A stretch of DNA of 64,000 nucleotides, taken from the IMG/VR virus record IMGVR_UViG_2974625098_000001, positions 59,622 through 123,621 of that record. The stretch is one strand, 5' to 3'. The notes beneath the pieces are model-generated. The model did not search any database, was not told the origin of the DNA, and worked only from the letters and a program-made list of their open reading frames with translations. The position numbers were made by a program, and so were the translations under genes. Below, piece by piece: positions 28,085-59,690 of the stretch. This DNA comes from a virus. Taxonomy: Duplodnaviria; Heunggongvirae; Uroviricota; Caudoviricetes. Every line of letters starts with the position of its first letter. The first letter of the stretch is position 1.

Positions 28085-28274
28085 GATTGAGGCGTACTGC
28101 TTCGACGTTCAGATTTATGTGAACGAGTTCGGGAAGTACGAGTACGGCGTGTCTCAGGAATTTGAAATTGATGGTGAAGAACAGTGGGAGTTGCTTGAAT
28201 CTGGCTCGGCAGATACTTTGGCTGAGGCCGCGCAGATGGCTAGTAACAGCATTCGCACACTGTTCCCGGCGTAA
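28077..28274 (+). CDS. hypothetical acidic protein
   Basis: track ORF. Confidence 0.45.
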   Translation: MNEIEAYCFDVQIYVNEFGKYEYGVSQEFEIDGEEQWELLESGSADTLAEAAQMASNSIRTLFPA

Positions 28275-28310
28275 ATAATTCGTGAGATTTTAGAGCCCTT
28301 TCGTAAAGGG
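28272..28310 (+). promoter_or_regulatory. copy 1 of bipartite motif TTCGTGAGATTTT-N16-TTCGTAAAGGG, directly upstream of tRNA-Gln
   Basis: see finding on the CGTGAGA/CGTAAAGG motif family. Confidence 0.45.
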
Positions 28311-28313
28311 CGG

Positions 28314-28386
28314 TCCCCTGTGCTCTGTCGGTTGGGCAACCGGACTTTGAATCCGGCCTACGCAGGTTCGAGCCCTGCCAGGGGAG
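28314..28386 (+). tRNA. tRNA-Gln(TTG)
   Basis: acceptor TCCCCTG/CAGGGGA (U1:A72 as in bacterial tRNA-Gln); anticodon arm CCGGA-CTTTGAA-TCCGG; T arm GCAGG-TTCGAGC-CCTGC. Confidence 0.55.
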
Positions 28387-28387
28387 C

Positions 28388-28750
28388 GTGCTAACTGATA
28401 ATCTATACTGGTACCGAATCAAGGAGTTCCTTTACAACCACGATGGTGATACACTCAAGGTGGTTGTGGACATGGGTATGCGTGTCTGTCGTGAGGTGAC
28501 GTTGCGAGCCGAGGGAATTAACTCCCCCGAGCTTCGTGGCGACACGCTCGAAAAGGCGCGGGTTTCCCGTGATGCCGCTAAGGAATGGTTCACTAAGCCT
28601 GGCAGAAAGCTGGTCGTCAAGACATACCTTGACCCCGGCAGCTATGACAGGTACACGGCCGAAATCTTTGACGCCGAAACCGAAGAGTGCTTTAATAAGT
28701 TCATGGTGGATAGCGGTTTCGCTGACACCTACGTCTATAAGTGGGGCTAA
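28388..28750 (+). CDS. thermonuclease (SNase-like)
   Basis: NHDGDTL ... RAEGINSPELRGDT ... SNase-like calcium-site and catalytic motifs; GTG start abuts tRNA-Gln. Confidence 0.55.
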   Translation: MLTDNLYWYRIKEFLYNHDGDTLKVVVDMGMRVCREVTLRAEGINSPELRGDTLEKARVSRDAAKEWFTKPGRKLVVKTYLDPGSYDRYTAEIFDAETEECFNKFMVDSGFADTYVYKWG

Positions 28751-28987
28751 ATGCTGTTCTGGATTTGGATTATTCCGGCCGGAATCGTGTTCTGTCTGCT
28801 GGGCCTGATGGTTCTGTGGGCAGCTCTGGCTAACGCACAGAGTGGTGAGCCTTTCTATGGCTTCCTGACTTTTGTTCTTGGAATTCCCACGGTTGCAGTG
28901 CTAGCTGCGGTCTGGCCGATTTGGTTCCCGTTCACGTTTACGTCTGACATCAAGAAGGACCTTCGAAAGAAGGCTGGCAAGGCTTAG
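28751..28987 (+). CDS. membrane protein
   Basis: track ORF; 2-3 TM. Confidence 0.5.
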   Translation: MLFWIWIIPAGIVFCLLGLMVLWAALANAQSGEPFYGFLTFVLGIPTVAVLAAVWPIWFPFTFTSDIKKDLRKKAGKA

Positions 28988-29031
28988 CCTTGTGGGGCGC
29001 AAGCCCCAAGCTTCCTACTATGGAGAACAAA

Positions 29032-29328
29032 ATGTTCTGGCTATCCCTCGCAGGACTGGCTCTAATTATTCTTCTTCTCGGATATTTCGGTCGCAAGTCC
29101 TCAGAGAAGCAGGAGCAAGAGCTAGCACGGCTCAGGTCACTTCCCAACTTCAACCGCTTCTGTGTGGTTGTGGACAAGCGGGGGCGTGAGCTAAGATGTC
29201 GGGTACGGGAATGGAACATCGAGCCGGGTTATTCTCGGCTGTGGTGCATCGACCCGATTCAACACCCGAACGGCTGGACGCAGAGCTTTGTCTGGCCGAA
29301 TGAAGATATCGAGTTCCTGGAGAATTAA
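29032..29328 (+). CDS. membrane-anchored hypothetical protein
   Basis: GGAG then ATG 29032 in frame of track ORF 28990; N-terminal TM. Confidence 0.5.
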   Translation: MFWLSLAGLALIILLLGYFGRKSSEKQEQELARLRSLPNFNRFCVVVDKRGRELRCRVREWNIEPGYSRLWCIDPIQHPNGWTQSFVWPNEDIEFLEN

Positions 29329-29525
29329 TGAGCATCTTGCTCGCTATTTATCTCATTGGCATCGGTGCATTCCTTGGCATTGGAGTGTTCCTGGTGCTCC
29401 TTGGTGGCCTTATTGGCATCGAGCCGAAGGACAGCATCGTTCTTAAGTATCTCGCGTTTACTGCGGGATGGCCGATTACTTATCCTGCCTGGGCTCTCTG
29501 GGTTACATACCAGGATAACAAGTAA
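29328..29525 (+). CDS. small 2-TM membrane protein
   Basis: track ORF; ATGA overlap. Confidence 0.5.
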   Translation: MSILLAIYLIGIGAFLGIGVFLVLLGGLIGIEPKDSIVLKYLAFTAGWPITYPAWALWVTYQDNK

Positions 29526-29555
29526 CACCTCGCCCCTTCGGGGGCAAGCTTAAGT

Positions 29556-29578
29556 CCCGGTCCGCCGGGGCTTTTTTA
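29556..29578 (+). terminator. terminator
   Basis: CCCGG-TCCG-CCGGG then GCTTTTTTATT. Confidence 0.6.
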
Positions 29579-29599
29579 TTGCCCGAACGAGAGAATAAT

Positions 29600-30196
29600 A
29601 TGAAATTCGAGAAACTACACGACCTAATTCCGTATGCGACAGGCGGAAAGAATCACGCTGTCACGATGACTCCCTACAATGCGATTACCCTCGCCATGCC
29701 GGGAAGACACCAGCACGATACGGTTCCGGCCGGTGGAGATTTCGTCGTTATGGTTTCCGACGATAATCTCGGATGGGTTAATCACCAGTTCACGCATGAC
29801 GATATCTTCCTGGACATGGAGCGCAAGATGGCCCTTGACTCCAAGTCTGCGGAGGAGCTGATGGCGGATTACGCAGAGGTTGTAATTAATGGCTCCGACC
29901 CGGAAAAATATGACTGGGAGCGTGGAGACTGGGAAGATACTCTGCACCCTCAGACGTTTCTGTATGCCGTTCAGTGCCTAGCTGTGGCTGAGCACAGGCG
30001 GTATCATCAGTTCGAGAAGCGAGGTGGGGGCAGGTACTTGCCTCTGCGCTTTACTTTCGGTATCGTTAGTGAGGCGTGGACGGCAGCCGACTGCAAGAAT
30101 TTTCAGCGGCGTGGTCGTCCTGGCCTGGAACACCTTGAGAAGGAGAAGGAGTTTAAGACGACTCTGACCGCTATCAAGGATTTTATGGCTGCATAA
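29600..30196 (+). CDS. hypothetical protein
   Basis: RBS GAGAGAATAAT then ATG 29600; in frame of track ORF 29579. Confidence 0.55.
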   Translation: MKFEKLHDLIPYATGGKNHAVTMTPYNAITLAMPGRHQHDTVPAGGDFVVMVSDDNLGWVNHQFTHDDIFLDMERKMALDSKSAEELMADYAEVVINGSDPEKYDWERGDWEDTLHPQTFLYAVQCLAVAEHRRYHQFEKRGGGRYLPLRFTFGIVSEAWTAADCKNFQRRGRPGLEHLEKEKEFKTTLTAIKDFMAA

Positions 30197-30248
30197 TTTC
30201 GCCGGGGTTGAGATACCCCGGCAAGCTGGTATACTAAGGAGGTAGAAA

Positions 30249-30467
30249 ATGGCTAAGGACTTCGAGGCCAAGAATTCCAAGGCGACGAGCAAGACTGTCG
30301 TGTTGACTCTCAAGGTTGACGCTGATAACATGGCAGAGCTATACGCACGGGTCGCGAATATTGTCGCGGCTGTCGAGAATAGTGCAGACGTGGAGAGCGT
30401 TGATGTTCGAGACAAGAAGGCCACTGCCAACTTCGGCGGACACGGATACAACACCCGCGCGCTCTGA
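30249..30467 (+). CDS. hypothetical protein
   Basis: RBS CTAAGGAGGTAG. Confidence 0.55.
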   Translation: MAKDFEAKNSKATSKTVVLTLKVDADNMAELYARVANIVAAVENSADVESVDVRDKKATANFGGHGYNTRAL

Positions 30468-30502
30468 ACCCTTGACGTGGGAAGAAATGGAGATGAGAAT
30501 AA

Positions 30503-30742
30503 TTGAAGGAGCTAGTAGAAAATCTAGCGACGACCTTCCTAATCAACGGGTGGGAGTGGAAGTTCGACTACGGCATGGCCGTTCCGAACGAGGATGACCT
30601 AGAGCGGGCTATTAATTATGCCAAGCAGGTGCTAGACTCTGAGGAAGCAACAAACGCCCAGCTAGAACTCGGGCGGCTCGTCTTCAAGAAGCGCGAAGGC
30701 GTCATCGACATCTTCGTTTATTCCGGAACCCTGGAGGATTAA
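30503..30742 (+). CDS. hypothetical protein (TTG start)
   Basis: track ORF; GGAG 12 nt upstream. Confidence 0.45.
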   Translation: MKELVENLATTFLINGWEWKFDYGMAVPNEDDLERAINYAKQVLDSEEATNAQLELGRLVFKKREGVIDIFVYSGTLED

Positions 30743-31177
30743 ATGCTGTTCGAGTACACTGATTTCAGTGAGGTTGCTAGCTCGCTGGTGAAGCGGGCCT
30801 ACTTCAACGCGAAGAACGGCGAGATGGCGGTCGTCCTGGCTGGTGGGACTTATGTCTACCAGGACGTTTCGTACCGCACCTTCTCTGACCTGATTGAGGA
30901 TATCTCTCCGGGCAGTTATTACAACCGAAACGTCAAGGGTGCGTACAAGAATAAGTACAACGGCGGGCTTTACGCTGTTGACTTCCAGCCCCTTGAGGAG
31001 GATGATGAGCCTGTGACGGCAAGCAATACGAAGGTTTATACGGTGCGAGCTTTCGTGCCGTTCGAAGCCCAGGTTGAGGCTTCTAGCCTGGACGAGGCTG
31101 TGCGACTCTTTGCCGAGTCCCACAACGACGTGCCGGGTGTTACTATCAAGGAGGTTGTGGTACCCTTTGGCGAGTGA
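30743..31177 (+). CDS. hypothetical protein
   Basis: track ORF; TAAATG overlap. Confidence 0.5.
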   Translation: MLFEYTDFSEVASSLVKRAYFNAKNGEMAVVLAGGTYVYQDVSYRTFSDLIEDISPGSYYNRNVKGAYKNKYNGGLYAVDFQPLEEDDEPVTASNTKVYTVRAFVPFEAQVEASSLDEAVRLFAESHNDVPGVTIKEVVVPFGE

Positions 31178-31490
31178 TAAGGTCGTAGAAGCAACCACGC
31201 TTGACCAGTTGCATGAGATTTTCAACAACCACGAGAAGGTCGTTGTTGATTTTCACGCCCCTAGTTGGTGTATCCCATGCCGTAGACTGGCTCCGCACAT
31301 TGACCTTGCGGCAAACAAGCGTGAGGATGTACGATTCGTGAAGGTCGATATTGACCGAGCGGACGAGGGCATCCGAAACACGTTCGAGATTATGTCGGTT
31401 CCGACCGTGCTATACTTCGAGAACGGTGAGCAGACGCGAGAGATTAAGGGTCGTACCGGCCCGGTTATCCTCCAGGAGCTTGACTCCTGA
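31167..31490 (+). CDS. thioredoxin
   Basis: WCIPC active site (FHAPSWCIPCRRLAP); N-terminus ASDKVVEATT resembles Trx; TTG start 12 nt after AAGGAGG. Confidence 0.65.
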   Translation: MASDKVVEATTLDQLHEIFNNHEKVVVDFHAPSWCIPCRRLAPHIDLAANKREDVRFVKVDIDRADEGIRNTFEIMSVPTVLYFENGEQTREIKGRTGPVILQELDS

Positions 31491-31567
31491 GTCTGCGGGT
31501 GGTTCAATTAGAACCACCCAAGCTTCCGGGAAACGCCCGGTTAATTGAATAACCAACAAGGAAAACT

Positions 31568-32452
31568 ATGCTGTTCATTGTTCTCGCAATTGTGTTCCTC
31601 CTGATTATTCTCGGTGGTGTGGGATTCTCCCTCGCTACTAAGGATAAGTTGGGATTCGGAGTGGCGGGAGGTGCGCTGGTTATCTTCCTGATAATCACTG
31701 GCTTCATGTCGTTCACGAAGGTCGATGCCCGAGCGGTCGGTATTCAGACTGGCTTCGGCAAGTACCAGGACACTTTGGGTAACGGTCCGCATTTCCTGGC
31801 CCCGTGGTCGGAGACGGAGCAGTTTTCCACGCAGGTTCAGTACCTTGACCTTGACGACACCGATGGTGACGGCAATGACTCGGTAAGCGTTACCTTTAAG
31901 GGTGGCGGCGGTGGCCAGGTTTCTCTCACTCCTCGCTGGAGGATTGACGAGAACAAGGCTGAGAACCTGTGGAAGAAGTACCGCACCTTCGACAAGGTTC
32001 GGGACCAGTTGGTGAACTCGTCTTCTAAGGATTCGGTCCGCGTGGTTGTTTCCAAGTACACGCCTAACGAGGCGCGTGATGGTGAGAACCTGCGTCCGAT
32101 TGCTGAGCAGATTCAGGCTGACCTTGCTAACTCGCTTAAGGATGACGGTGTTATCATCGACTCCGTAAGCATTAAGAAGATTCAGCTTGACGCTCGTAGT
32201 CAGAACTCGCTCGACAAGATTGTTGAGGCTAACAACAACATCGAGCGTGCCAAGGCCGAGCGTGAGCGTGCAAAGATTGACGCTGAGACTGCCAAGATTC
32301 GTGAGCAGTCTGGTCAGCTCTCTGAGAAGGCCAACCAGCGTTACTGCCTTGAGATGATGAACAACTGGGACGTGAAGAAGAACGGTCCTCTCCAGGACGG
32401 CTTCGTCTGCCCCGGTACCACTTCTCAGGGTTACACGACCACCAACAAGTAA
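31568..32452 (+). CDS. SPFH/band-7 (stomatin-prohibitin-like) membrane protein
   Basis: N-terminal TM pair then GIQTGFGKY and a coiled-coil, typical of SPFH domain proteins. Confidence 0.6.
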   Translation: MLFIVLAIVFLLIILGGVGFSLATKDKLGFGVAGGALVIFLIITGFMSFTKVDARAVGIQTGFGKYQDTLGNGPHFLAPWSETEQFSTQVQYLDLDDTDGDGNDSVSVTFKGGGGGQVSLTPRWRIDENKAENLWKKYRTFDKVRDQLVNSSSKDSVRVVVSKYTPNEARDGENLRPIAEQIQADLANSLKDDGVIIDSVSIKKIQLDARSQNSLDKIVEANNNIERAKAERERAKIDAETAKIREQSGQLSEKANQRYCLEMMNNWDVKKNGPLQDGFVCPGTTSQGYTTTNK

Positions 32453-32492
32453 TACTTCGCGGGGCTCTTTGTTAAGAGCCCCGCAAGCTTTT

Positions 32493-32530
32493 AAAAATCC
32501 GTGAGATTTTCACGTACGTTCGTAAAGGGG
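32493..32530 (+). promoter_or_regulatory. copy 2 of bipartite motif AAAAATCCGTGAGATTTT-N16-CGTAAAGGGG
   Basis: ends 4 nt before ATG 32535. Confidence 0.45.
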
Positions 32531-32534
32531 CATC

Positions 32535-32783
32535 ATGACTTCACGGCGTAAGTTCCTCTGCCTGGACTGCCGAGTGGACACCGGGAAAATCGGTGAGCAC
32601 TACATGCTTATTGATGAGACCTGGCACTTGACCGGGCTCCAGAAAATCGGTATGCTCTGTATCGAAGACGTTGAGCGCCGGATTGGTCGTAAGCTTGTTC
32701 CGTCCGACTTCAACAACAGCTACCTAAACCAGCCGAGGACTGGTATTATTAGTCAGCGACTCCAGGACAGGATGGGAATATGA
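32535..32783 (+). CDS. hypothetical protein (CxxC)
   Basis: track ORF. Confidence 0.5.
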   Translation: MTSRRKFLCLDCRVDTGKIGEHYMLIDETWHLTGLQKIGMLCIEDVERRIGRKLVPSDFNNSYLNQPRTGIISQRLQDRMGI

Positions 32784-33697: not shown

Positions 33698-33700
33698 CTT

Positions 33701-34812: not shown

Positions 34813-34860
34813 GACGGCGGGGCTTCGGCCCCGCAAGCTTCCTCTGACTTAGGAGATATT

Positions 34861-38794: not shown

Positions 38795-39070
38795 ATGCCT
38801 AGTGTAATGCTTGGTGAAGATGAAGTAGTAGAGATAGTAGAGCTGCTTCGAGGTATCAACCGGGATATCGGAGACCCAGAGGACTGGGGCATTCCGGATT
38901 ATCTGCTGGAGGCGATGCCAGAGAAGATGCGCAAGCACAGCTTCACCCTCGTCATCGAGTCAAACAAGGACGACCTAGACCTTGACATCGACTCTCTGCG
39001 GGCTGTAGTCTTTGGAGAAGTGAACGACGCAGAGGCCAGGGTCTCCCTGACCTTCGACGGGGTTTCGTAA
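38795..39070 (+). CDS. hypothetical acidic protein
   Basis: track ORF. Confidence 0.5.
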   Translation: MPSVMLGEDEVVEIVELLRGINRDIGDPEDWGIPDYLLEAMPEKMRKHSFTLVIESNKDDLDLDIDSLRAVVFGEVNDAEARVSLTFDGVS

Positions 39071-39083
39071 AGGAGCGAAATAA

Positions 39084-39263
39084 ATGAGCACCACTAGCCT
39101 TATCCTTTTCGTTATCGCGGGTTTGTTCCTGACGTGGCAGGTGGTGCTTGCTATTCTTGCCCACGCCATGGTCAGAAGTGGTAGATTTAACCAGGTGAAG
39201 ATTGGTATGCTTCCTCTGGTCCTTGCTACTATCTTCTGCATCATAGGAATTTTCACGCGGTAA
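39084..39263 (+). CDS. 59-aa 2-TM membrane protein
   Basis: RBS AAAGGAGCGAAATAA then ATG; below track cutoff. Confidence 0.4.
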   Translation: MSTTSLILFVIAGLFLTWQVVLAILAHAMVRSGRFNQVKIGMLPLVLATIFCIIGIFTR

Positions 39264-42227: not shown

Positions 42228-42530
42228 ATGTTTACCGCTCAGCAAATCAAGGACGCCATCGAGAAGGACTGGGAGGGTGACGAGTCCGAGTTCTTTTACT
42301 GCGTTGAGGACAGCGCAGAGCTGGAGTCTCTGGGCGTTGTTGCCAAGGGCGTTGACTCTTACGGTGGTGAGGGCCAGGGTGACTCTCTCTGGGTTGTTTT
42401 CCAGATTGGTGACCAGTTCTTCGAGAAGACTGGTTATTGGCAATCCTGGGAGGGTGGCACTTGGGATGGCGACCTTTATGAGGTCGAGCCTTACGAGGTA
42501 ACCGTTACCAAGTACCGAGCCAAGCGCTAA
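42228..42530 (+). CDS. paralog family member 4
   Basis: FQIGDQFFEKTGYWQSWEGGTWDGDLYEVEPYEVTVTKY. Confidence 0.55.
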   Translation: MFTAQQIKDAIEKDWEGDESEFFYCVEDSAELESLGVVAKGVDSYGGEGQGDSLWVVFQIGDQFFEKTGYWQSWEGGTWDGDLYEVEPYEVTVTKYRAKR

Positions 42531-42563
42531 AAATCCGTGAGATTTTTGGGGATGTTCGTAAAG
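42526..42563 (+). promoter_or_regulatory. copy 3 of bipartite motif AAAAATCCGTGAGATTTTT-N-TTCGTAAAGGG
   Basis: second half embedded in hairpin GGGGATG/CATCCCC. Confidence 0.45.
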
Positions 42564-42577
42564 GGCATCCCCAAAGC

Positions 42578-42607
42578 TATTGACATCAGCTATTGCCGCC
42601 TGGTACT
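42578..42607 (+). promoter_or_regulatory. promoter TTGACA-N18-TACTAT
   Basis: consensus -35; good -10. Confidence 0.5.
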
Positions 42608-42613
42608 ATTAAA

Positions 42614-42712
42614 GTATGTTCTGGCGGACAAACAACAAATAGCTTCGAAATATCTCGTATTTCGCGATAAGCCCCGAAAGACTTCCGCCAGAGTCTTTCG
42701 GGGCTTTTTTCG
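42614..42712 (+). ncRNA. candidate small RNA (about 95 nt) ending at a strong terminator
   Basis: promoter at 42578-42607, then no ORF longer than 8 codons, then terminator GCCCCGAAAGACT-loop-AGTCTTTCGGGGC plus T6 at 42671-42712; internal complementarity TCTGGCGGA/TCCGCCAGA. Confidence 0.4.
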
Positions 42713-42759
42713 TTGCTTAGCTAATGTCAAACCCACAATTAAAAGGAAAATAAGTAAAA

Positions 42760-43689
42760 GTGAATAAGATTGATGTTCGAAAGGGCCTGGGTATTGCGTA
42801 TGCATCGTCATTCGTAATTGCCCTGGCGGCGGCTCTGGCGGTTTCAACGTGGTCTCTGCACCACCTGGGAGCGAAGTTCTTCGACCTCCCGGAATTGCTA
42901 AGCTGGGTAGTTAGTGGAATTTTTGATGTCGGTGCTCTCGGTGCTGCGATTCTCGCAACGCTTTATGCACTCGATGGTGAGTCGGGTGGCAAGGGTAAGT
43001 TCATTGCCTTCCTGATGATTGGAACGTCTGCGTTCCTGAACGCAGAACACGCGCTCATGCTGGGCCATGGATATATTGCAGCTCTGCTGTATGCGGCTCC
43101 AAGCATCGCGGCGGGTTTTCTGCTGGACCTCTTCCTTGACTGGCTCAAGTCTGGTAGCTTGAGGTCACGAGGACGAGTCCACAAGGAATTTCCTCTGGTA
43201 CGACACGCAACACTGTTCTACAACCCACGCAAGTGGATTGGCTTCTACCGCAAGGGTCTGGCTATTGACCTCCAGGTTGCCGAGAGGCAGCTAGAGGATA
43301 GGCTGACTGCCCTTGTGGAGGTCACAGAAAAGGTTGAGCCGAAGGCAATTAAGGCCACGGTCACTCGACTGGACACCGCAAAGAAGAAGCCTGTAGAAAA
43401 GAAGCCAGCCGCTAAGGCTATTGAGGCTAAGAAGCCTCGCCCCAAGAAGGTTCAGGACCCTGAGTCTGGTGCTATTCTCGGTCTCAGCGCGTTCCAGAAT
43501 ATTCCTCAGAACACGTCACACGCCAAGCTGGTGAATATTGCTATGCAGGCTGGCGTCAAGGACCGTGACGTTATCGAACAGGCTATCTTGCTGCACACTG
43601 GCAAGGCTCCAGCTCGTTCAACGCTCAACGCTTACGTTTCTCGTTGGAACCGTGAGCACAAGGACTTGCCAACCGGCATGTACCTCTGA
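42760..43689 (+). CDS. integral membrane protein (4 TM N-terminal domain, DUF2637-like) with lysine/proline-rich linker
   Basis: track ORF; GTG start. Confidence 0.5.
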   Translation: MNKIDVRKGLGIAYASSFVIALAAALAVSTWSLHHLGAKFFDLPELLSWVVSGIFDVGALGAAILATLYALDGESGGKGKFIAFLMIGTSAFLNAEHALMLGHGYIAALLYAAPSIAAGFLLDLFLDWLKSGSLRSRGRVHKEFPLVRHATLFYNPRKWIGFYRKGLAIDLQVAERQLEDRLTALVEVTEKVEPKAIKATVTRLDTAKKKPVEKKPAAKAIEAKKPRPKKVQDPESGAILGLSAFQNIPQNTSHAKLVNIAMQAGVKDRDVIEQAILLHTGKAPARSTLNAYVSRWNREHKDLPTGMYL

Positions 43690-45778: not shown

Positions 45779-45807
45779 TCACCAGCCCCCGAAAGGGGGC
45801 AAGCTCG

Positions 45808-45845
45808 CAAAATCCGTGAGATTTTCCTACCCTTTCGTAAAGGAG
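45808..45845 (+). promoter_or_regulatory. copy 4 of bipartite motif AAAATCCGTGAGATTTT-N16-CGTAAAGGAG
   Basis: directly after a hairpin-AAGCTC element; ends 7 nt before ATG 45852. Confidence 0.45.
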
Positions 45846-45851
45846 AGACGC

Positions 45852-46130
45852 ATGTCTCAGCCCTGGAGCATCACCGGCTGGTCTACTGAGTTCCGGCAGG
45901 TTGGTCCCGAGGAATATCGATACAAGGTCAAGGACCCAGAGGGAAAGACCTGGCACCGTAACGGGGTTTCTGAGTTCACCGCTCAGGGCACCCAGCAAGA
46001 GGCTCTGGCCGAGATGAAGGACAAGGTTAGGTCTTTCGTCAGCACCTATGCCGCAGCGAAGGCACCGGTACAGGTCTACACCTTCTTTGATGAGAACGAC
46101 GACCCTCGTGAGGTTGACACAACGAGCTAG
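45852..46130 (+). CDS. hypothetical protein
   Basis: ATG 45852 in frame of track ORF 45729. Confidence 0.5.
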   Translation: MSQPWSITGWSTEFRQVGPEEYRYKVKDPEGKTWHRNGVSEFTAQGTQQEALAEMKDKVRSFVSTYAAAKAPVQVYTFFDENDDPREVDTTS

Positions 46131-46463: not shown

Positions 46464-46492
46464 TTGACGCTACAAGCGTCGCCATGTACGAT
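46464..46492 (+). promoter_or_regulatory. promoter TTGACG-N17-TACGAT fused to hairpin-AAGCTT element
   Basis: AAGCTTGACG; near-consensus hexamers. Confidence 0.4.
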
Positions 46493-46520
46493 GGTTACAC
46501 CTTCTCGGGAAAGAGGACAT

Positions 46521-46970
46521 GTGAACCTGATGCTTGCTGAGCGTATGGCCCGTAAGCTGATGCTGGACCACGGTCTGTACGGCTGGAATTTCAAGTGGGA
46601 CAATGCAGCTCGCCGGTTCGGGCAGACCGATTATTCCAAGGCCACCATTTCGCTGTCTCGTAAGCTGACTGTTCAGCGAACCGAGGACGCCGTTCGTAAC
46701 ACGATTCTCCACGAGATTGCCCACGCTCTTACTCCGGGAGCTGGCCACGGTCCTAAGTGGCGAGCCAAGGCCCTGTCTATCGGATGTAACGGAAAGCGTT
46801 GTTCGGATGACCCGGTTGAGGTTAAGCCGAATTGGATTGGCAAGTGCCCGAATGGGCACACGGCCGGTACTCGTCTCCGTCGTCCTTCTGCCAAGGCCCG
46901 CCCGATGTCGTGTGGTAAGTGCTCTCCGGTTTACAACGACAAGTACGTTATCCGCTGGGTTGCGGCATAA
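46521..46970 (+). CDS. SprT-like zinc metalloprotease domain protein
   Basis: YGWNFKWDNAARRFG ... ILHEIAHAL (HExxH) plus C-terminal CxxC zinc ribbon; GTG start after GAAAGAGGA. Confidence 0.55.
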   Translation: MNLMLAERMARKLMLDHGLYGWNFKWDNAARRFGQTDYSKATISLSRKLTVQRTEDAVRNTILHEIAHALTPGAGHGPKWRAKALSIGCNGKRCSDDPVEVKPNWIGKCPNGHTAGTRLRRPSAKARPMSCGKCSPVYNDKYVIRWVAA

Positions 46971-47016
46971 TCTACTGGGGTCGAAAGACCCCAAGCTTCC
47001 CCAATTAGGAGATATA

Positions 47017-52827: not shown

Positions 52828-52849
52828 GGTTTCGTAAAAGGGGAGATTA

Positions 52850-52948
52850 TGTTTACTAAGTGGTTCTGGTTCGTCGGCATCCTGGCCCTCGGCTGGGCGG
52901 GCTTCATCATCTGGGCAATTACTCGGGTGGTTCTGCACTTCACCTGAG
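52850..52948 (+). CDS. 32-aa hydrophobic peptide
   Basis: RBS AAAGGGGAGATT then ATG. Confidence 0.3.
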
Positions 52949-53223
52949 AAAACGGCGGGGTTTCGTAAACAAGACCCCGCAAGCTTCCCTGATTGACAGG
53001 GATAATTTGGATATGTTAGGCTTCCGGTATGAGATTCGAAATTAAGGAAGAAACATACAAGCACGGTCGTAAGACCGAAAAGCAGTTCGCAATCTTTGAT
53101 AAGTTCAAGGGCGAGGTTGTCGTCCGATACGCTGAGCGCAAGAAGTGCCAGGAACTTATCGATAAGTACGAAGCTGCTCAGGCTGCTGCGGAAAAGTAGC
53201 AGATAAATTCTCGGGAGAGTCCA

Positions 53224-53750: not shown

Positions 53751-53790
53751 AAAAATCCGTGAGATTTTTCGGGGGGTTTCGTAAAGGGGG
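53751..53790 (+). promoter_or_regulatory. copy 5 of bipartite motif AAAAAATCCGTGAGATTTTT-N-TTTCGTAAAGGGGG
   Basis: second half embedded in hairpin CGGGG..CCCCG. Confidence 0.45.
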
Positions 53791-54043
53791 AACCCCGTTC
53801 ATATTCAACTGCCCCGGACCGGACATCCGGGGCAAAGCTCGCACAAGGTGCAAATCGGACATACCGGACAGAGTAAAAAATCTTGAAGTTTGGGCTTGCC
53901 AAGTAAAGACAGGCCGCGTAGTCTTATGGATGTCGGCAGGGGAGAGCGACAGGGAACCAAGGCCCAACAGTCCCCCAGCTAGACAAAGTAAAGAAAATCC
54001 ACTAAGCTCTTACTCACAAGGGCACTCGGTCTCGGGAGTAAAA

Positions 54044-55502: not shown

Positions 55503-55572
55503 ACAGACTCTCTTAAAGCCTGTACCATAAGGGAAAGGGGAGGACCGTCCTCCCCTTAGCTAGGGAGAGTCT

Positions 55573-55830: not shown

Positions 55831-55892
55831 CCATTCCGCTAAGGGGCCGGGGTTTATCTCCTCGGCCCCTTTAGCTTGTTGGAAAGGAAACG

Positions 55893-56171
55893 ATGAAACC
55901 GCTTAATCTAACCGCACAGCTAAACCCCAAGGTGGTTGACGGCAAGGTTTACTTTGACCTTGACGCCTTGTGCGAAGTCCTCTTCTCGCACTGCACCGAA
56001 ATGTCTCAGCTTGCCAATGACCTACGTGACCCCATGCTAGGTCTGATGGTGATGGGTCAGACTGTGCTCGCACAGGCTCTAGATGACGTTCTGGGAGCCG
56101 AACAGGCTAAGCATGGCCTAGAAGTTACCGGGACTCCTCAGAGGCCCGCAGACGGGCACACAGAGGCTTAG
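55893..56171 (+). CDS. hypothetical protein
   Basis: track ORF; RBS GGAAAGGAAACG. Confidence 0.5.
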   Translation: MKPLNLTAQLNPKVVDGKVYFDLDALCEVLFSHCTEMSQLANDLRDPMLGLMVMGQTVLAQALDDVLGAEQAKHGLEVTGTPQRPADGHTEA

Positions 56172-56176
56172 AGGCC

Positions 56177-56206
56177 CGTTGACAATAATTCGCCAACGAT
56201 GCTACA
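56177..56206 (+). promoter_or_regulatory. promoter TTGACA-N18-TACAAT flanked by 9-bp inverted repeat TCGCCAACG/CGTTGGCGA
   Basis: exact consensus hexamers. Confidence 0.55.
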
Positions 56207-56358
56207 ATAAATTATACGTTGGCGAGGAAGCAGCAACGTTCTGAATTTCGGTACCCCTAGTCTAGTCGCGGGTCACGGCAAGGGGCTAAGCACAACATAA
56301 GCAGGCCGAAATTCATTTCCCAATCTGAATACCTGAATCTAACTCGGAGGATTTGTCA

Positions 56359-56463
56359 ATGCCGAACTTTATCGACTACGATGATGAGACCAACGACGTT
56401 GAGGTTGAGCGGGATAACCCGAGCGACGTGACTTACATTCTTGATGGTCTTCTTACTTTCTAA
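56359..56463 (+). CDS. 34-aa acidic peptide
   Basis: RBS CTCGGAGGATTTGTCA then ATG. Confidence 0.3.
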   Translation: MPNFIDYDDETNDVEVERDNPSDVTYILDGLLTF

Positions 56464-56477
56464 GGAAATACTCTTTC

Positions 56478-56687
56478 ATGGCTGTTGTTCGTCTTAGCAC
56501 TGCCCTTCGTAACGCCCCGGCTGTCAATGTTCAGTCCTGTGTCTATGGGATTGAGTGTGAGGTCAAGGAAAAGACTGACCCCGCCAACATTGTCTTTGAG
56601 CTGATTGGCAGTGTGGAAAAGATTCGTCTCATTGCTGCGAAGACGAATTCGCAGGTTGTGTCGCACCTGGATAAGGTAGCGATGTGA
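56478..56687 (+). CDS. hypothetical protein
   Basis: track ORF. Confidence 0.45.
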   Translation: MAVVRLSTALRNAPAVNVQSCVYGIECEVKEKTDPANIVFELIGSVEKIRLIAAKTNSQVVSHLDKVAM

Positions 56688-56761
56688 CACTAGCCCCGGT
56701 CTAAAAAGCCGGGGCTAAGCTTTGCCAGGAGGCTGGCAATATCGGAAACACTGGAGAATGA

Positions 56762-56998
56762 ATGTCTGACCGGTCTGTTCTTGACACCGTAGACGCTTAC
56801 GCTGTTGAGCCCGAGGACTACGTTCGCTTTGTCGATAGCGAAGGTGTTCATGAGGGCATTGTTCTGGCCATTGAGGACCACGGAGACGCCATTACGCTGG
56901 TGCTCTCGGATGACCTGGAGGGGGACACCATCGACTATCAGATAGAGGCCCTGTCACAGGTTGAGATTCTTGGCTTCGATGTTCTCGAAGTTGCTTGA
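56762..56998 (+). CDS. hypothetical acidic protein
   Basis: track ORF. Confidence 0.5.
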   Translation: MSDRSVLDTVDAYAVEPEDYVRFVDSEGVHEGIVLAIEDHGDAITLVLSDDLEGDTIDYQIEALSQVEILGFDVLEVA

Positions 56999-57153
56999 CA
57001 CCTAATGCTGGTGGAGCTACGCTCATAGCATGACTGTGACTGGATGGGCGGGGAAGGCTTTCGTCAGACTGGCGATGGAACTGCCCTTGCTTCCGCCCAT
57101 CCCGCGCAGACGGCTTTACGAATTCCTGATGTCCGCTCCGGAATCGGTCAAGC

Positions 57154-57582
57154 GTGAAGCTGCGAAACATCTACTGGATTCGGAGTGAACAAGTGGAAGC
57201 AAAGAGAAGGAGGCTTTGGCTTATCATTTCGGCGGGTCTTTCCGTCGTGATTCTTGTGTTGGTTATCGCACTGAGAGAAAATAGGCCATCGACCCAGTAC
57301 CAGGATTACCAATCCTGGGCAAGTACATTTGGTGTAGGCGATTGGACGCTTACCGAAGATACCACCAAGGATTTCGCTGAAAGCAATTGTCAGCACATCA
57401 TCAATGGTGGTGACCCTGGATGGTTGATTCGGAGTGCCGACCATCTAAAGGCCACGTCTGCGGTTTTCATGGCCTACTGCCCAACGGCTATTGAGAGCTA
57501 CCTGAAATACGTTGACAATGACGACAGGTACGACGAATATGCCAGCACCACCGCGCGTATCCGCAGGGACCTAGCTCGGTAG
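57154..57582 (+). CDS. signal-anchor membrane protein
   Basis: track ORF; N-terminal TM LWLIISAGLSVVILVLVIAL; start uncertain (GTG 57154 or 57190). Confidence 0.45.
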   Translation: MKLRNIYWIRSEQVEAKRRRLWLIISAGLSVVILVLVIALRENRPSTQYQDYQSWASTFGVGDWTLTEDTTKDFAESNCQHIINGGDPGWLIRSADHLKATSAVFMAYCPTAIESYLKYVDNDDRYDEYASTTARIRRDLAR

Positions 57583-57705
57583 GTTGCAAGGCGAGCAAGA
57601 TTATTCTCTCGCCAAGCTAGGGAGGGGTTGACTAGACCCCTCCCTTCTTGTTATTGTAGGTATCACAAGAGAGGGACAGGCCCTCTCCAGCTAGGAGGTA
57701 AGAAA

Positions 57706-58086
57706 ATGGACTCCACTCGGGGACTCCGACTGCACGCTACTGACCACGCGCTCAAGCAGATTCTCCAGAAGGGTTTCGCTGTTGAGAAGATTCGCGAGAC
57801 GTTCGAAAACCCGGTTAAGCTTTACAAGAATGGCAAGTACGAGGGACAGTACCGCGTGACGGGTAACGGAATTTGCCTGGTTGGTAAGCCGAAGGGCAAC
57901 ACATTCACCCTGATTACCGTTTACGAGGATGGCGTAATGACCCCGCCTCGGCCCGACCAGCTTGAGACCGAAGAGGGTAGGGCATACGCTGAGCGGTACG
58001 CTGAGGGGCTGGCGCGGGATAACGAGTACATGCCTCGCGCAATCGCTCGTGAGAGGGCACAGCGTAAGGCTCAGCGAGCCGCTTGA
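57706..58086 (+). CDS. hypothetical protein
   Basis: RBS CTAGGAGGTAAGAAA then ATG 57706 in frame of track ORF 57628. Confidence 0.55.
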   Translation: MDSTRGLRLHATDHALKQILQKGFAVEKIRETFENPVKLYKNGKYEGQYRVTGNGICLVGKPKGNTFTLITVYEDGVMTPPRPDQLETEEGRAYAERYAEGLARDNEYMPRAIARERAQRKAQRAA

Positions 58087-58153
58087 TTATCCGGCGGGGT
58101 GTGCTAGAATCGTAAGCACACCCGGTAAGCTCGTCCAGTGAGAGGCAGAGATA

Positions 58154-58585
58154 ATGCGTAAGACTGCTTGTGTCGTTGGCCTGATGGTTGCGAGTGTCGT
58201 TCTCACGGGATGCGGTGAGGACAAGCCCAAGACCCCTGAATTCCACGTCAAGCCCCCGAGCAAGGCCACTCTAACAAAGCTCCACAAGCAAGAGTGGGAG
58301 CGCGACTGGTTTGAGCCTCGCATCGTTGACGTGTGGCCCATGGGATACTGGAATGACCTTTCCGACGAGACTCAGGAAAAGATTTCCGACACGGCTTTTA
58401 AGGTTTGCCGACACATTCGTAACGATGATGACTGGGATGAGGACAGGGCGGAAGCGTACACCCTGGACGTTCTGAATTCCATGGAATCGCTGGACGAATA
58501 CCCCGGCAGCAGGGAAGACGCTGCTCAGCGAATTGTTTACCAGGCGGCTACTTGGGCGGACTACCTTTCAGAGCTGACCTGCTAA
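58154..58585 (+). CDS. lipoprotein
   Basis: signal peptide with lipobox LTGC. Confidence 0.55.
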   Translation: MRKTACVVGLMVASVVLTGCGEDKPKTPEFHVKPPSKATLTKLHKQEWERDWFEPRIVDVWPMGYWNDLSDETQEKISDTAFKVCRHIRNDDDWDEDRAEAYTLDVLNSMESLDEYPGSREDAAQRIVYQAATWADYLSELTC

Positions 58586-58650
58586 GCAATACTGGCCCCG
58601 AAAGGGGCCAAGCTTTTACCCACAATGTCTAGTATCTCGGGAGACATAGT

Positions 58651-58968
58651 ATGTGCTACAAGTGCGACGAGGACCGTTACAGCTACTCCGACGAGCCGAA
58701 GACGGTTGACGTTGTTATGCCCGATGCTGAGGGAATGCAGTACCGCACGGGCGGTGTTCTCGGTTACTGGAAGGATGTTCAGAAGGGGCAGACCTCTTTC
58801 GAGGTTCCTTATTCTCGAATCGAATTCCGTAAGAAGCCGAAGATGGTTGCCACGATTACCTACCCGACTAACACGGCGGTTTTCTACGACGAGGAATCGC
58901 TTAAGCGGGCTATCGAAATCAATCTCCAGAACGGTGCAAAGTTCGACCTTAAGGTTGAATGGAAGTAA
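58651..58968 (+). CDS. hypothetical protein
   Basis: track ORF; RBS TCGGGAGACATAGT. Confidence 0.55.
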   Translation: MCYKCDEDRYSYSDEPKTVDVVMPDAEGMQYRTGGVLGYWKDVQKGQTSFEVPYSRIEFRKKPKMVATITYPTNTAVFYDEESLKRAIEINLQNGAKFDLKVEWK

Positions 58969-59030
58969 TACCAGCCGGGCGAAAGCCCGGCAAGCTTTTC
59001 CCTATTCGTAACGACGAAAGAGTCTCGGGA

Positions 59031-59234
59031 ATGTCTAAGCCTCTCAGCATGGCCGTGTCAGAGCTGACCATCCGTGACGGATACGGGCGGGTTTCCAAGC
59101 GCTACCGGATGGTTCGAAGCAACGACATAATCAAGTGCCTGATGACTGTCTCTGAGTCATCTAATGAGAAGCACACGCAAGAGAACATCCGTAAGGTCAT
59201 AGACATGATTCTTGACCTCAACCCAAACGTCTGA
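59031..59234 (+). CDS. hypothetical protein
   Basis: RBS TCTCGGGA then ATG 59031 in frame of track ORF 58959. Confidence 0.5.
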   Translation: MSKPLSMAVSELTIRDGYGRVSKRYRMVRSNDIIKCLMTVSESSNEKHTQENIRKVIDMILDLNPNV

Positions 59235-59253
59235 AAGGCTTGCCCTACATCCC

Positions 59254-59284
59254 TTGCGGGGTGTAGGGTTTTGTCGTTGGCACC
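59254..59284 (+). terminator. rho-independent terminator
   Basis: CCCTACA-loop-TGTAGGG then TTTTGT. Confidence 0.55.
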
Positions 59285-59303
59285 CATAGGAAGGGCACAG
59301 AAA

Positions 59304-59549
59304 ATGGCTCAGGGCATTTGGATTAACGGGGAGCGCCCCAAGTCCAAGAAGGCAATTCGAGAGGCTGTGGAAACTAACCCAGCCATGGTGGACGTGGAAG
59401 CCACCAGCTTGCACGGGGGAGAGTACGGCGGTCCTCTCCACCAGGCTCCGGAAGGCACGATGATTGTCTTTGTCGGGCCAGACCCGTACAAGTCTCGGAA
59501 GTTCTACGGCACCATTACCAAGTTCAACGGAGAGCTTCACATTTCCTGA
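59304..59549 (+). CDS. hypothetical protein
   Basis: ATG 59304 after GGAAGGGCACAGAAA; in frame of track ORF 59271. Confidence 0.5.
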   Translation: MAQGIWINGERPKSKKAIREAVETNPAMVDVEATSLHGGEYGGPLHQAPEGTMIVFVGPDPYKSRKFYGTITKFNGELHIS

Positions 59550-59605
59550 GAGCGACAAGAATATCCCTCGGCCCGGAAAGGGTCGGGGGATTTTTCTTTT
59601 CCCGG

Positions 59606-59690
59606 AAAAAATTCGTGAGAAAATTTGGAGACTTTCGTAAGCTTCGTAAAGCCTAAAACTTGGAGATTTTTGCGAGCTTCGTAAAGGGGG
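59606..59690 (+). promoter_or_regulatory. copy 6 (internally duplicated) of bipartite CGTGAGA / TTCGTAAAG motif
   Basis: AAAAAATTCGTGAGAAAATTTGGAGACTTTCGTAAGCTTCGTAAAG ... TTGGAGATTTTTGCGAGCTTCGTAAAGGGGG. Confidence 0.4.

Follow-up and report, generated by a model that had tools for sequence, protein, structure and literature searches.

The intergenic DNA of Streptomyces phage BillNye carries a genuine two-box signal that is strand-specific and family-wide. It does not look like the promoter of a new sigma factor; its invariant half (box 2, TTCGTAAAGG) is read as RNA, in a ribosome-binding site or at a hairpin tip, and not as a -10 box. The interpretation tentatively preferred here is a control cassette at the start of units, of the ESAS/SAS kind, in which box 2 would belong to the transcribed leader and the half upstream of it would serve as a non-canonical promoter or as a regulator site. 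The window analysed is a stretch of 64,000 nucleotides of the phage record, in which record position equals window position plus 59621. The six full copies and two half-sites of a preliminary description were all confirmed on its plus strand (Table 1).

Table 1. Copies of the two-box signal in the BillNye window (window positions)
Feature	Copy	Feature extent	Strand	Sequence and structure	Neighbourhood
Full copy A	28272-28310	28272..28313	+	AATAATTCGTGAGATTTT (box 1), agagccct, TTCGTAAAGG (box 2); hairpin GCCCTTT/AAAGGGC	First base at gp110 stop codon TAA; tRNA-Gln(UUG) from 28314
Full copy B	32493-32530	32493..32534	+	Box 2 at 32519-32528; AAAGGGG as Shine-Dalgarno	3' of GC hairpin 32459-32482 and AAGCTTTT; gp099 ATG at 32535, 6 nt gap
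Full copy C	42526-42564	42526..42579	+	Box 2 (42555-42564) is loop of hairpin TTTGGGGATG/CATCCCCAAA, -20 kcal/mol; AAGCT next	First base at gp073 stop codon; separate sigma70-like promoter 3', -35 box TTGACA at 42580
Full copy D	45808-45845	45808..45851	+	Box 2 at 45834-45843; AAAGGAGAG as Shine-Dalgarno	3' of hairpin CCCCCGAAAGGGGG and CAAGCT; gp064 ATG at 45852, 8 nt gap
Full copy E	53751-53790	53751..53797	+	Box 2 (53778-53787) within hairpin GGGGGGTT/GAACCCCG	gp042 stop codon is TGA within TGAGA; then non-coding DNA with CGGACAT repeats
Full copy F, composite/tandem		59606..59690	+	AAAAAATTCGTGAGA...TTTCGTAAGC, TTCGTAAAGC, AAAACTTGGAGATTTTtgcgagcTTCGTAAAGG	Canonical terminator 59566-59600 directly 5' (10-bp stem, -20.9 kcal/mol, then ATTTTTCTTTT); four CGGACAT and DnaA-box-like TTATCCACA repeats 3'
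Half-site, box 2 only	39059-39073	39059..39083	+	GGGGTTTCGTAAAGGAG	gp083 stop is TAA within box; gp082 ATG at 39084, 10 nt gap
Half-site, box 2 variant	52828-52840	52828..52848	+	TTCGTAAAAG; feature reads GGTTTCGTAAAAGGGGAG	gp045 ATG at 52849, 8 nt gap
Degenerate copy		7587..7635	+	TGAGATTTTT, hairpin GAGGGGGTTTCGTAAT...CCCCTTC, AAGCTT	
Degenerate copy		52945..52986	+	TGAGAAAAC, hairpin GCGGGGT-TTCGTAAAC-AAGACCCCGC, AAGCTT, ATTGACA	

A motif search of the phage genome and its relatives found the signal enriched, on one strand and throughout the family. TGAGA-N11-14-TTCGTAA has eight matches, all on the plus strand, against 0.05 expected, a number reached in none of 100 shuffles. Exact TTCGTAAAGG occurs seven times in the 127-kb genome and never on the minus strand, being confined to 87.9-119.3 kb of the record, and when up to one mismatch is allowed the window has 15 matches, where 3.3 would be expected. 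The distance from (T/G)GAGA to TTCG in BillNye and close relatives is 17 nt in 12 of 22 cases, 18 nt in seven and 16 nt in three, with a free spacer sequence. The G in CCGTGAGA is an insertion specific to BillNye/Circinus (relatives read CCTGAGA), so the fixed register is TGAGA...TTCGTAAAGG and not CGTGA. The replication and structural modules, where one would expect a factor-dependent class of promoters, contain no copy of the motif, which counts against the cassette.

Box 2 is kept across Stanwilliamsviridae (Wilnyevirus, Wakandavirus, Annadreamyvirus, Faustvirus and Karimacvirus), always both just 5' of tRNA-Gln(UUG) and in tandem beside an origin-like gap, whereas box 1 varies by genus but holds its distance. 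Orthologues of copy A precede tRNA-Gln in Wakanda, Ankus, Byblos, Annadreamy, Blueeyedbeauty, TunaTartare and IMG/VR L186, and the half-site at 39059 is kept in Wakanda and Byblos. The stems of copy C have diverged with pairing kept in Wakanda (one G.U pair), Ankus, Byblos and Blueeyedbeauty. Such conservation bears on whether the motif could be a passive or selfish repeat, either a junction at which mobile gene cassettes recombine or a duplication remnant with no regulatory role. Homology between BillNye and Wakanda is indeed lost on both flanks of copy B, at the motif, and stops immediately 3' of copy D, so that the motif marks mosaic boundaries. T4-type PeSLs are promoter-early stem-loop cassettes with canonical sigma70 early promoters, and stoperators are sites bound by the repressors of temperate phages. 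The BillNye copies resemble T4 PeSL and cluster A stoperators as short one-oriented intergenic repeats beside hairpins, at mosaic boundaries and among the small early genes of a hyperplastic region; unlike box 2, neither includes a ribosome-binding site. A repeat without function is nevertheless scarcely credible given that box 2 is invariant across subfamilies whose genomes can no longer be aligned, that the motif keeps its places (tRNA-Gln, site C, site E and the origin gap), and that orientation is strict and Shine-Dalgarno spacing precise.

The start codon lies 6-10 nt 3' of box 2 (mean 7.3) in 13 of the 13 ORF-proximal copies, drawn from nine genomes or contigs, and AAAGG(A/G)G is therefore read as a Shine-Dalgarno sequence, box 2 being used in these copies as the ribosome-binding region. 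In the preferred cassette, the 3' half of the box 2 RNA (UUCGUAAAGG) would provide a 7-8-nt Shine-Dalgarno wherever an ORF follows, and the 5' half, (CC)UUUCG, may pair with it. This placement rules out box 2 as the -10 element of a productive promoter, as initiation 3' of it would yield untranslatable or irregularly leaderless mRNAs.

The preliminary description had taken CGTAAAGG as a -10 box with transcription starting 7-10 nt 3', which is not supported, given these 13 Shine-Dalgarno placements and the sense-RNA hairpins described below. What survives of its promoter class is a directional, bipartite, intergenic regulatory signal, without (T/C)CGTGA and CGTAAAGG as -35 and -10. That an alternative host sigma or a phage factor reads the two boxes, 16-17 nt apart, and starts transcription 6-10 nt 3' is very improbable, although the signal is bipartite, co-oriented, intergenic and constant in spacing. 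A second site, AAAAAATCTTGAAG-N14-GTAAAG, has the same layout, and AAGCT lies at a start-compatible 5-10 nt 3' of TAAAGG in hairpin-type copies. A putative CGT(A/C) -10 with 16-17-nt spacing recalls ECF-type promoters. Against such a promoter, two half-sites and several copies in relatives lack box 1, the variable gap of 6-10 nt misfits leaderless initiation, the supposed -35 box differs between genera and is shifted in register by the inserted G, and the 5' end of tRNA-Gln lies only 4 nt after the box in BillNye and Wakanda, so that a start 3' of the box would fall inside the tRNA. The different holoenzyme that had been implied is likewise not borne out. Among about 60 uncharacterised ORFs (100 aa or longer) and two large unknown proteins, Pfam detected no sigma-factor or RNA polymerase domain, full-consensus (early-type) and -10-only promoter classes already serve the remainder of the genome, and no multi-copy host enrichment of the box was seen among the first 120 genome matches listed, where a single box copy on one Streptomyces contig was the sole case.

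Adjacency to a gene or tRNA start, asserted earlier for all copies, holds for three of the six full copies, the DNA next to those at 42526, 53751 and 59606 being non-coding. Where no ORF follows (tRNA-Gln, an independent sRNA-type promoter or the origin-like gap), box 2 caps a sense-RNA hairpin. It forms the hairpin tip in about 25 copies. Cognate flanks fold to -8.3 kcal/mol and non-cognate flanks to -5.5 kcal/mol, a result matched in none of 2000 permutations. The hairpins are tuned for the sense RNA: folds are at -13.9 kcal/mol for sense versus -9.2 kcal/mol for antisense (Wilcoxon p = 2.7e-5), and 41 of 245 stem pairs are G.U. Two non-equivalent folds occur, a CCUUU-CGU-AAAGG triloop and a loop within a larger stem, and a significant hairpin is missing in about half of the copies. 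The hairpin is often followed 5-10 nt on by AAG|CUU, which may be an RNase E site, as it conforms to the actinobacterial motif RR|CNU (PMC10641625). Across the phage, AAGCT sites with a hairpin (UUCG, GAAA or GCAA loops) make up 61 of 193 on the plus strand versus 27 of 223 on the minus strand, and, as had been described, a hairpin-AAGCT element precedes the copies at 32493 and 45808.

These properties also suit the main competing explanation, a cis element that works only at the RNA level, in sense transcripts that read through from upstream. A single-stranded box rich in A/U with a hairpin or leader would be laid out like nut (boxA, spacer, boxB), and a conserved factor would recognise the invariant UUCGUAAAGG. 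[quoted passage not shown] It is favoured by the use of box 2 in RNA, both as Shine-Dalgarno and within a phage-wide system of sense-RNA hairpins, by the 3' UTR positions of copies C and E, and by copies in which box 2 works without box 1 (the two half-sites and several in relatives). Several ORF-proximal copies and the two half-sites carry box 2 alone behind a hairpin-AAGCT element; there, read-through RNA need only be processed and a promoter is superfluous, which counts against the cassette. The architecture of boxA, spacer and stem-loop is established for nut, and the likeness to lambda nut and rrn antiterminators lies in a transcript-borne conserved single-stranded box, a short spacer and a small hairpin with a conserved loop (PMC2724277). 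The second-type loop C(GUAAA)G of some phage copies is a GNRA-like pentaloop, comparable to lambda boxB, and the setting is nut-like, a 113-kb co-directional gene array rich in intercistronic hairpins. With actinobacterial boxA, box 1 probably shares only UGAGA. Unlike nut, there are six to eight phage copies rather than two, the hairpin fold is inconstant, and some copies follow terminators, not promoters.

We consider the RNA-only explanation rather unlikely on balance. Copy F and its orthologues lie immediately 3' of a strong canonical terminator, and a position between this hairpin with U-tract and the origin-like repeats leads one to expect low transcription from upstream. The Yaboi copies are close to the physical left end of the genome (232-670), the two folds and hairpin-less copies make a single structure-specific RNA-binding protein unlikely, and the tight spacing between boxes, whatever the hairpin type, is more typical of DNA recognition.

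The cassette is accordingly preferred with a possible promoter in the upstream half and box 2 transcribed, the two parts acting at different levels, box 1 on DNA and box 2 in the sense transcript. Enrichment, strand bias, fixed spacing, box 2 conservation, Shine-Dalgarno geometry, hairpin covariation and the sense bias of the hairpins count for it, as do the Yaboi copies, copy F after its terminator and the tRNA promoter slot. The last refers to nine stand-alone tRNA units with TTGACA-N17/18-TAnnAT 5', mostly ending 13-15 nt (in a few up to about 50 nt) before the tRNA; tRNA-Gln(UUG) alone has the two-box motif where these others have a promoter. The motif itself shows no match to the TTGACA/TAnnAT promoters also present in the phage, as had been noted. 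Box 1, an A-tract, YC(G)TGAGA and a T-tract 16-18 nt 5' of box 2, may be a weak, non-canonical promoter lacking a -35 and/or a regulator-binding site, with TGnGATTTT or nATTTT as candidate -10; transcription would start 0-3 nt 5' of box 2, making it the 5' end of the leader. Against this promoter, the candidate -10 is poor (GATTTT, TATTTT or AATTTT), about one in four copies from other genera lack an A at -11, and there is no -35 box in the upstream half. The A-tract and T-tract can also pair, with flanks lengthening the stem in several copies (e.g. CCGAAAAA/TTTTTCGG and GTCAAAA/TTTTGAC), which would also be compatible with a function of box 1 in RNA. A trans-acting factor may be involved, and family-conserved candidates are gp183, a MerR-like HTH protein with an Arg-rich N-terminus, and the WhiB-like gp121.

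Copy F proved to be internally duplicated and to adjoin DnaA-box-like repeats, as first described. Its position holds tandem copies in Ankus, Byblos, Annadreamy, TunaTartare, Yaboi and IMG/VR L142 and L186, and the tandem arrangement beside the origin-like region is kept in every genus examined. The putative origin is recognised solely from the DnaA-box-like and CGGACAT repeats. Tandem phage promoters are known at replication origins, namely phi1.1A/1.1B at the T7 primary origin and middle promoters at T4 oriF/oriG. The likeness is in two or three tandem co-oriented copies directly 5' of an origin-like non-coding region; unlike those, the present copies are only putative promoters, and there is no phage RNA polymerase. 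The same arrangement might suggest a double-stranded DNA site for a phage protein other than a promoter, either a stoperator-type operator or roadblock or an origin iteron, whose copies would be scattered over the right arm and concentrated at the origin. Multiple one-oriented copies in short intergenic spots, as with cluster A stoperators (PMC3203893), tandem copies adjoining CGGACAT and DnaA-box repeats in all genera, a near-palindromic extended box (GACCCTTTCGTAAAGGGTC) and family-wide DNA-binding proteins (gp183, WhiB-like and Lsr2-like) would agree with it. It is improbable, however, as conservation is asymmetric, the right half being invariant and the left often missing, as a double-stranded palindrome does not predict G.U pairs and better sense folding, and as Shine-Dalgarno placement is left unexplained.

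The closest parallel for the preferred cassette is with the SAS and ESAS (Pope et al. 2011, PMC3203893; Adephagia 2024, PMC11373665) of cluster K mycobacteriophages, where ESAS has been re-read as SigA-like -35/-10 boxes with an inverted repeat, 5' of the Shine-Dalgarno-containing SAS (PMC11373665, PMC3203893). As with SAS, an asymmetric, invariant short box contains the ribosome-binding site 3-9 bp before start codons, occurs in one orientation in about 10-19 copies, is kept across subclusters before unrelated genes, and is conserved beyond what 16S rRNA pairing explains; as with ESAS, a subset is extended upstream, at a constant distance, by a stretch containing an inverted repeat, which in the case of ESAS was later read as a SigA-like promoter plus inverted repeat. 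The sequences are unrelated (SAS GGGATAGGAGCCC versus box 2 TTCGTAAAGG), and the BillNye upstream part has no SigA-like -35 or -10 box. Unlike SAS, BillNye-type copies are also found where translation has no target, ahead of a tRNA gene, an independent promoter and an origin-like region, and their box 2 often caps a sense-RNA hairpin followed by AAGCU. Host genus and phage family also differ from those of cluster K, and BillNye-type phages are lytic.

The two degenerate copies, at 7587-7635 and 52945-52986, were absent from the preliminary description, and the former has an orthologue in IMG/VR L007.

Over its whole length the window matches Streptomyces phage BillNye (NC_042105.1; 127,084 bp; Stanwilliamsviridae, Loccivirinae, Wilnyevirus) at 100% identity, the record coordinate being the window coordinate plus 59621. 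BillNye has terminal repeats of 2.26 kb and a single + strand gene array (record 6.1-119.2 kb) running from structural and replication genes through tRNAs and tmRNA to about 100 small genes, after which comes an origin-like non-coding gap (record 119.2-120.5 kb). The motif, in which box 1 (YC(G)TGAGA between an A-tract and a T-tract) is followed by a 10-nt box 2, lies in the right arm amid the small genes. The positions of its copies in the preliminary description all hold, as does the placement of copies B and D behind hairpin elements. Box 2 (TTCGTAAAGG) has seven exact copies in the BillNye genome, all on the + strand and all within record 87.9-119.3 kb, and the pattern TGAGA-N11-14-TTCGTAA has eight matches in the window against 0.05 expected, bringing in two degenerate copies.

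Features of the window (window coordinates)
Feature	Position	Strand	Remarks
Copy A	28272	+	before tRNA-Gln(UUG), 28314
Copy B	32493	+	before gp099
Copy C	42526	+	
Copy D	45808	+	before gp064
Copy E	53751	+	
Copy F	59606	+	tandem
Half-sites	39059, 52828		box 2 only
Degenerate copies	7587, 52945		
Hairpin-AAGCT examples	32459-32490, 34817-34840, 45786-45806, 46990-47000	+	
Stand-alone tRNA units	6750-33610		nine units
Candidate sRNA	42580-42712		about 95 nt
sRNA promoter	42580-42609		TTGACA-18-TACTAT
Terminator	42669-42706		strong; part of the candidate sRNA
gp072	42552-42767		overlaps the candidate sRNA
Origin-like gap	59566-60880		
Terminator before copy F	59566-59600		canonical; 10-bp stem, -20.9 kcal/mol, then AUUUUUCUUUU
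CGGACAT repeats	59712, 59768, 59795, 60364		further copies 53820, 53856
DnaA-box-like TTATCCACA	59807, 59820		inverted 59831, 60086
AAAAAATCTTGAAG-N14-GTAAAG	53874-53908		motif-like layout
gp109 endonuclease	28388		annotated GTG start

A motif search of the whole genome and of relatives found the two-box signal to be enriched, one-oriented and conserved. Both boxes occur in Circinus, Wakanda, Muntaha, Ankus, Byblos and one IMG/VR contig, where the 8-9-nt spacer and the flanks of orthologous sites vary and the two boxes stay constant; in 22/22 copies the start of (T/G)GAGA precedes that of TTCG by 16-18 nt. Since relatives carry CCTGAGA where BillNye has CCGTGAGA, the conserved register is TGAGA and not the CGTGA first reported, BillNye being shifted by 1 nt. 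Homology breaks at copies B and D, as a passive repeat at cassette boundaries would have it; such a repeat seems to us most improbable.

Comparison across genera indicated that box 2 is far older than box 1. The form (GA)CC(C)TTTCGTAAAGG(GTC) was found 5-8 times, always on the + strand, in Annadreamy, Blueeyedbeauty, TunaTartare (Faustvirus), Yaboi (of another subfamily, Boydwoodruffvirinae) and three IMG/VR contigs. Box 2 always stands 2-14 nt upstream of tRNA-Gln(UUG), and the origin-like gap always bears two or three tandem copies followed by CGGACAT repeats, which in Yaboi corresponds to the left end of the genome (232-670). The form of box 1 depends on the genus, being AAAAAWYCC(G)TGAGATTTT in BillNye and close relatives, AAAAAYCTGNGCATTTT in Annadreamyvirus and, in Faustvirus, a T-rich stretch without an A-tract. 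Loose-pattern matches in IMG/VR were mostly chance singles, and the informative contigs were only L007, L142, L186, L245 and L305. Among the listed matches of CCTTTCGTAAAGGG to bacterial genome contigs there were scattered singles in unrelated bacteria and one Streptomyces contig, with no sign of a host regulon, and no description of the motif was found in full-text literature on the boxes, BillNye or Stanwilliamsviridae. The 8-mer CGGCGGGT (24 on the + strand, none on the - strand) was rejected as a signal; it lies mostly within coding sequence and its abundance probably reflects codon usage (Ala-Ala-Gly).

Wherever an ORF follows box 2, the gap to its start codon is 6-10 nt (13/13 cases in nine genomes or contigs; mean 7.3 nt). 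The 3' half of the box, AAAGG(A/G)G, complements the anti-Shine-Dalgarno sequence at the 16S 3' end, CCUCCUUUCU. This Shine-Dalgarno placement applies equally to both half-sites, in which box 1 is missing, and to box-1-less copies of relatives directly behind a hairpin-AAGCT element. No ORF start lies within 12 nt of copies A (tRNA-Gln), C, E and F or their orthologues. Of 55 curated copies, about 25 present box 2 at a hairpin tip, on stems that vary between copies (GACCC/GGGTC, GAGACC/GGTCTC, GGGGATG/CATCCCC, CGGGTG/CACCCG and GCGGGT/ACCCGC are examples). Folding with cognate flanks gave -8.3 kcal/mol versus -5.5 kcal/mol with non-cognate flanks, the observed mean being reached in 0 of 2000 permutations; G.U pairs make up 41 of the 245 pairs, and sense hairpins are more stable than antisense ones (-13.9 vs -9.2 kcal/mol, p = 2.7e-5). 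Near the origin the core CCTTT-CGT-AAAGG is replaced by CCAT-CGTA-ATGG, with both sides changed. Box 2 thus acts in RNA, and the Shine-Dalgarno spacing and hairpin-tip results place that action in the sense transcript. None of the hairpin-tip features (stem fit, G.U pairs, sense bias, two-sided core change) is predicted by a double-stranded -10 box.

The motif had first been read as a candidate promoter, with (T/C)CGTGA as its -35 and box 2 as its -10, transcription starting 7-10 nt downstream. As the -10 of a productive promoter CGTAAAGG is not tenable, because such a start would remove the Shine-Dalgarno sequence of every associated ORF (13/13) and, at the gap of 4 nt before tRNA-Gln in BillNye and Wakanda, would fall within the tRNA; precise leaderless starts are ruled out by the varying gap to the start codon. 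Nor is the supposed -35 box conserved, since it varies by genus (TGAGA, CTGGGCA, none in Faustvirus) while box 2 is invariant. Promoter-like spacing of two boxes need not mean -35/-10, a caution for sequence-only reading; with a sigma70 or an ECF-like -10 alike, we consider this geometry very unlikely. Alternative -35/-10 pairs picked out visually (TTGACC ahead of box 2, TGAGAT as -35, the A-tract as -10) were rejected because none holds across genera or suits the tRNA 5' end, and a T7/T3-like reading, based on the resemblance of box 2 to CACTAAAGGGAGA, was dropped because Pfam revealed no phage RNA polymerase. A Pfam search of gp213, gp205 and some 60 uncharacterised ORFs (100 aa or longer) detected no Sigma70_r2, Sigma70_r4 or RNA_pol domain, though small or highly divergent factors could escape it. 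The only regulator found with Pfam was a WhiB-like protein, to which the genome annotation adds a MerR-like HTH protein.

The different holoenzyme first taken to be implied is not required by the promoter repertoire of BillNye. Promoters of the form TTGACA-N17/18-TAnnAT number 36 in the right arm, three times the 11.8 expected, and each of nine stand-alone tRNA units is preceded by a near-consensus example, which ends mostly 13-15 nt and otherwise about 30-50 nt before the tRNA. The exception among stand-alone tRNAs is tRNA-Gln(UUG), where the motif sits in the promoter slot. Between the genes of the structural and replication modules (record 6-66 kb) lie GGTAYAAT, GGTACAAT, GGTATAAT or TATAAT motifs that lack a -35 box, apparently a distinct class of middle or late promoters.

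Several points still speak for the composite acting on DNA in the manner of a promoter: the box 1-box 2 spacing, which is tight whatever the hairpin type, the tRNA-Gln slot, the position of copies B and D behind hairpins and above all copy F, which with its orthologues directly follows a canonical terminator upstream of origin-like repeats, an arrangement reminiscent of the tandem promoters at T7 and T4 origins. Box 1 sites are not called by a promoter consensus scan, and the upstream extension holds no SigA-like hexamer pair. All Wilnyevirus-type copies have TGaGATTTT; other genera have mostly TATTTT, AATTTT or GATTTT, the A missing in about a quarter. The promoter might lie within box 1, with TGnGATTTT or nATTTT serving as a weak extended -10 below the A-tract and transcription starting 0-3 nt before box 2, which would then form the 5' end of a 16-25-nt leader. 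We infer that this geometry is the sole one compatible with all contexts, and everything said here on box 1 and on a trans-acting factor has the same inferential standing.

The motif may be a start-of-unit cassette, like ESAS plus SAS (the start-associated sequences of cluster K mycobacteriophages), with box 1 a non-canonical promoter and/or regulator site and box 2 a transcribed leader or Shine-Dalgarno sequence that would also cap hairpins in read-through RNA; to this reading, the one we prefer, we give somewhat less than an even chance. A purely RNA-level element, for processing, translation or nut-like antitermination, would account for the hairpin tips and the ribosome-binding-site placement but sits less well with copy F behind its terminator, and we regard it as rather unlikely. 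Unlike lambda nut, the motif has no constant boxB-type fold, showing two non-equivalent folds and, in about half of the copies, no significant hairpin. The A-tract and T-tract of box 1 (inverted repeat AAAATC/GATTTT) may form a hairpin of their own, which the flanks extend in several copies, inconsistently. A non-promoter site for a protein on double-stranded DNA, stoperator- or iteron-like, appears unlikely. The proposal that UUCGUAAAGG on sense-RNA hairpins and leaders is the site of a family-wide RNA-binding regulator of actinobacteriophages, exerting nut/N-like antitermination or RegA-like translational and processing control, is more speculative still; if true, it would mean coordinated expression along a 113-kb co-directional array punctuated by RNase E-type hairpin-AAG|CUU sites. 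Alternatively, box 2 could mimic the anticodon loop CUUUGAA of tRNA-Gln(UUG), whose gene it always adjoins.

Many box 2 hairpins are part of the hairpin-AAGCT series, AAGCT following TAAAGG by 5-10 nt. The series consists of a GC hairpin (UUCG, GAAA or GCAA loop), AAGCT(T)(CCC), about 8 nt, AGGAG and ATG. A hairpin of at least 5 bp was found within 0-2 nt upstream of AAGCT at 61/193 sites on the + strand and 27/223 on the - strand, compared with 9% of random positions; the 61 + strand sites span record ~25.9-123.4 kb, nearly all in 50-119 kb. Mycobacterial RNase E prefers RR|CNU, which AAG|CUU fits (PMC10641625), and CUUCCC, a Shine-Dalgarno sequence and ATG lie downstream of the putative cut, suggesting systematic RNase E-type processing of polycistronic RNA that leaves a protective 3' hairpin. 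Intrinsic termination fits these elements less well and was rejected because they lack a U-tract. It was discarded for the motif too, whose hairpin comes after the T-tract and leads on to AAGCT, a tRNA or a start codon; true terminators are present elsewhere in the window.

The known SAS comprises an asymmetric invariant box over the ribosome-binding site, a few bp before starts, in one orientation and many copies (PMC3203893, PMC11373665), and the cluster K upstream extension has recently been re-read as a SigA-like promoter plus inverted repeat (PMC11373665). The BillNye motif is likewise asymmetric, invariant, one-oriented and multi-copy, with a ribosome-binding-site box before unrelated genes. 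The likeness is one of kind, with no sequence homology; unlike SAS, the motif is not confined to translation starts (copies A, C, E, F and orthologues), and its upstream part has an inverted repeat and no SigA-like hexamer pair. It is best filed among phage-specific, one-oriented intergenic start-associated regulatory repeats and is not, on present evidence, a new mechanism class.

The SAS/ESAS phenomenon, so far unexplained, is thereby extended from mycobacteriophages to an unrelated actinophage family, which hints at a general actinophage solution coupling a promoter or operator to a marked leader. No transcription or RNA-processing map has been described for the Stanwilliamsviridae (clusters BE and BK, >120 genomes), which are large lytic Streptomyces phages, and the motif offers a clean, compact, family-wide and experimentally tractable handle, its 10-nt box being a possible entry to how expression units are delimited in a 113-kb one-way array. 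Box 2 could also be made into portable parts for controlling expression and processing in engineered Streptomyces, and could aid the correction of gene starts and the removal of spurious ORFs such as gp072 and gp027.

Rfam at the gathering threshold matched only tRNAs and tmRNA. The candidate sRNA likewise has no Rfam match; it is 91-93% conserved in relatives otherwise about 82% identical genome-wide, and gp072, annotated across it, is probably spurious. A terminator opens the origin-like gap, and the annotated - strand ORF gp027, which overlaps the repeats there, is doubtful. The AAAAAATCTTGAAG-N14-GTAAAG site shares the layout of the motif (A-tract, TC, TGA.., about 15 nt, GTAAAG), its spacer holds a CTTGG/CCAAG hairpin, and BillNye, Wakanda, Ankus and Byblos all keep it. 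The terminal repeat (record 100-205 and 124922-125027) holds two copies of GGGTTTCTTAA, which recall box 2, together with seven TTTACTTT repeats near the genome end. The annotated start of gp109 adjoins the last base of tRNA-Gln, and a conserved AAGGAG further downstream suggests that the true start is later. The MerR-like gp183 (record 46469-46999) may be annotated from too far downstream, because its ORF can be lengthened to include an Arg-rich N-terminus, GTRARKRSRRLRY, a stretch that most of 127 related Streptomyces phages keep in frame; the protein is a candidate nucleic-acid-binding regulator, and as a pointer to an N-like antiterminator its N-terminus is only a lead.
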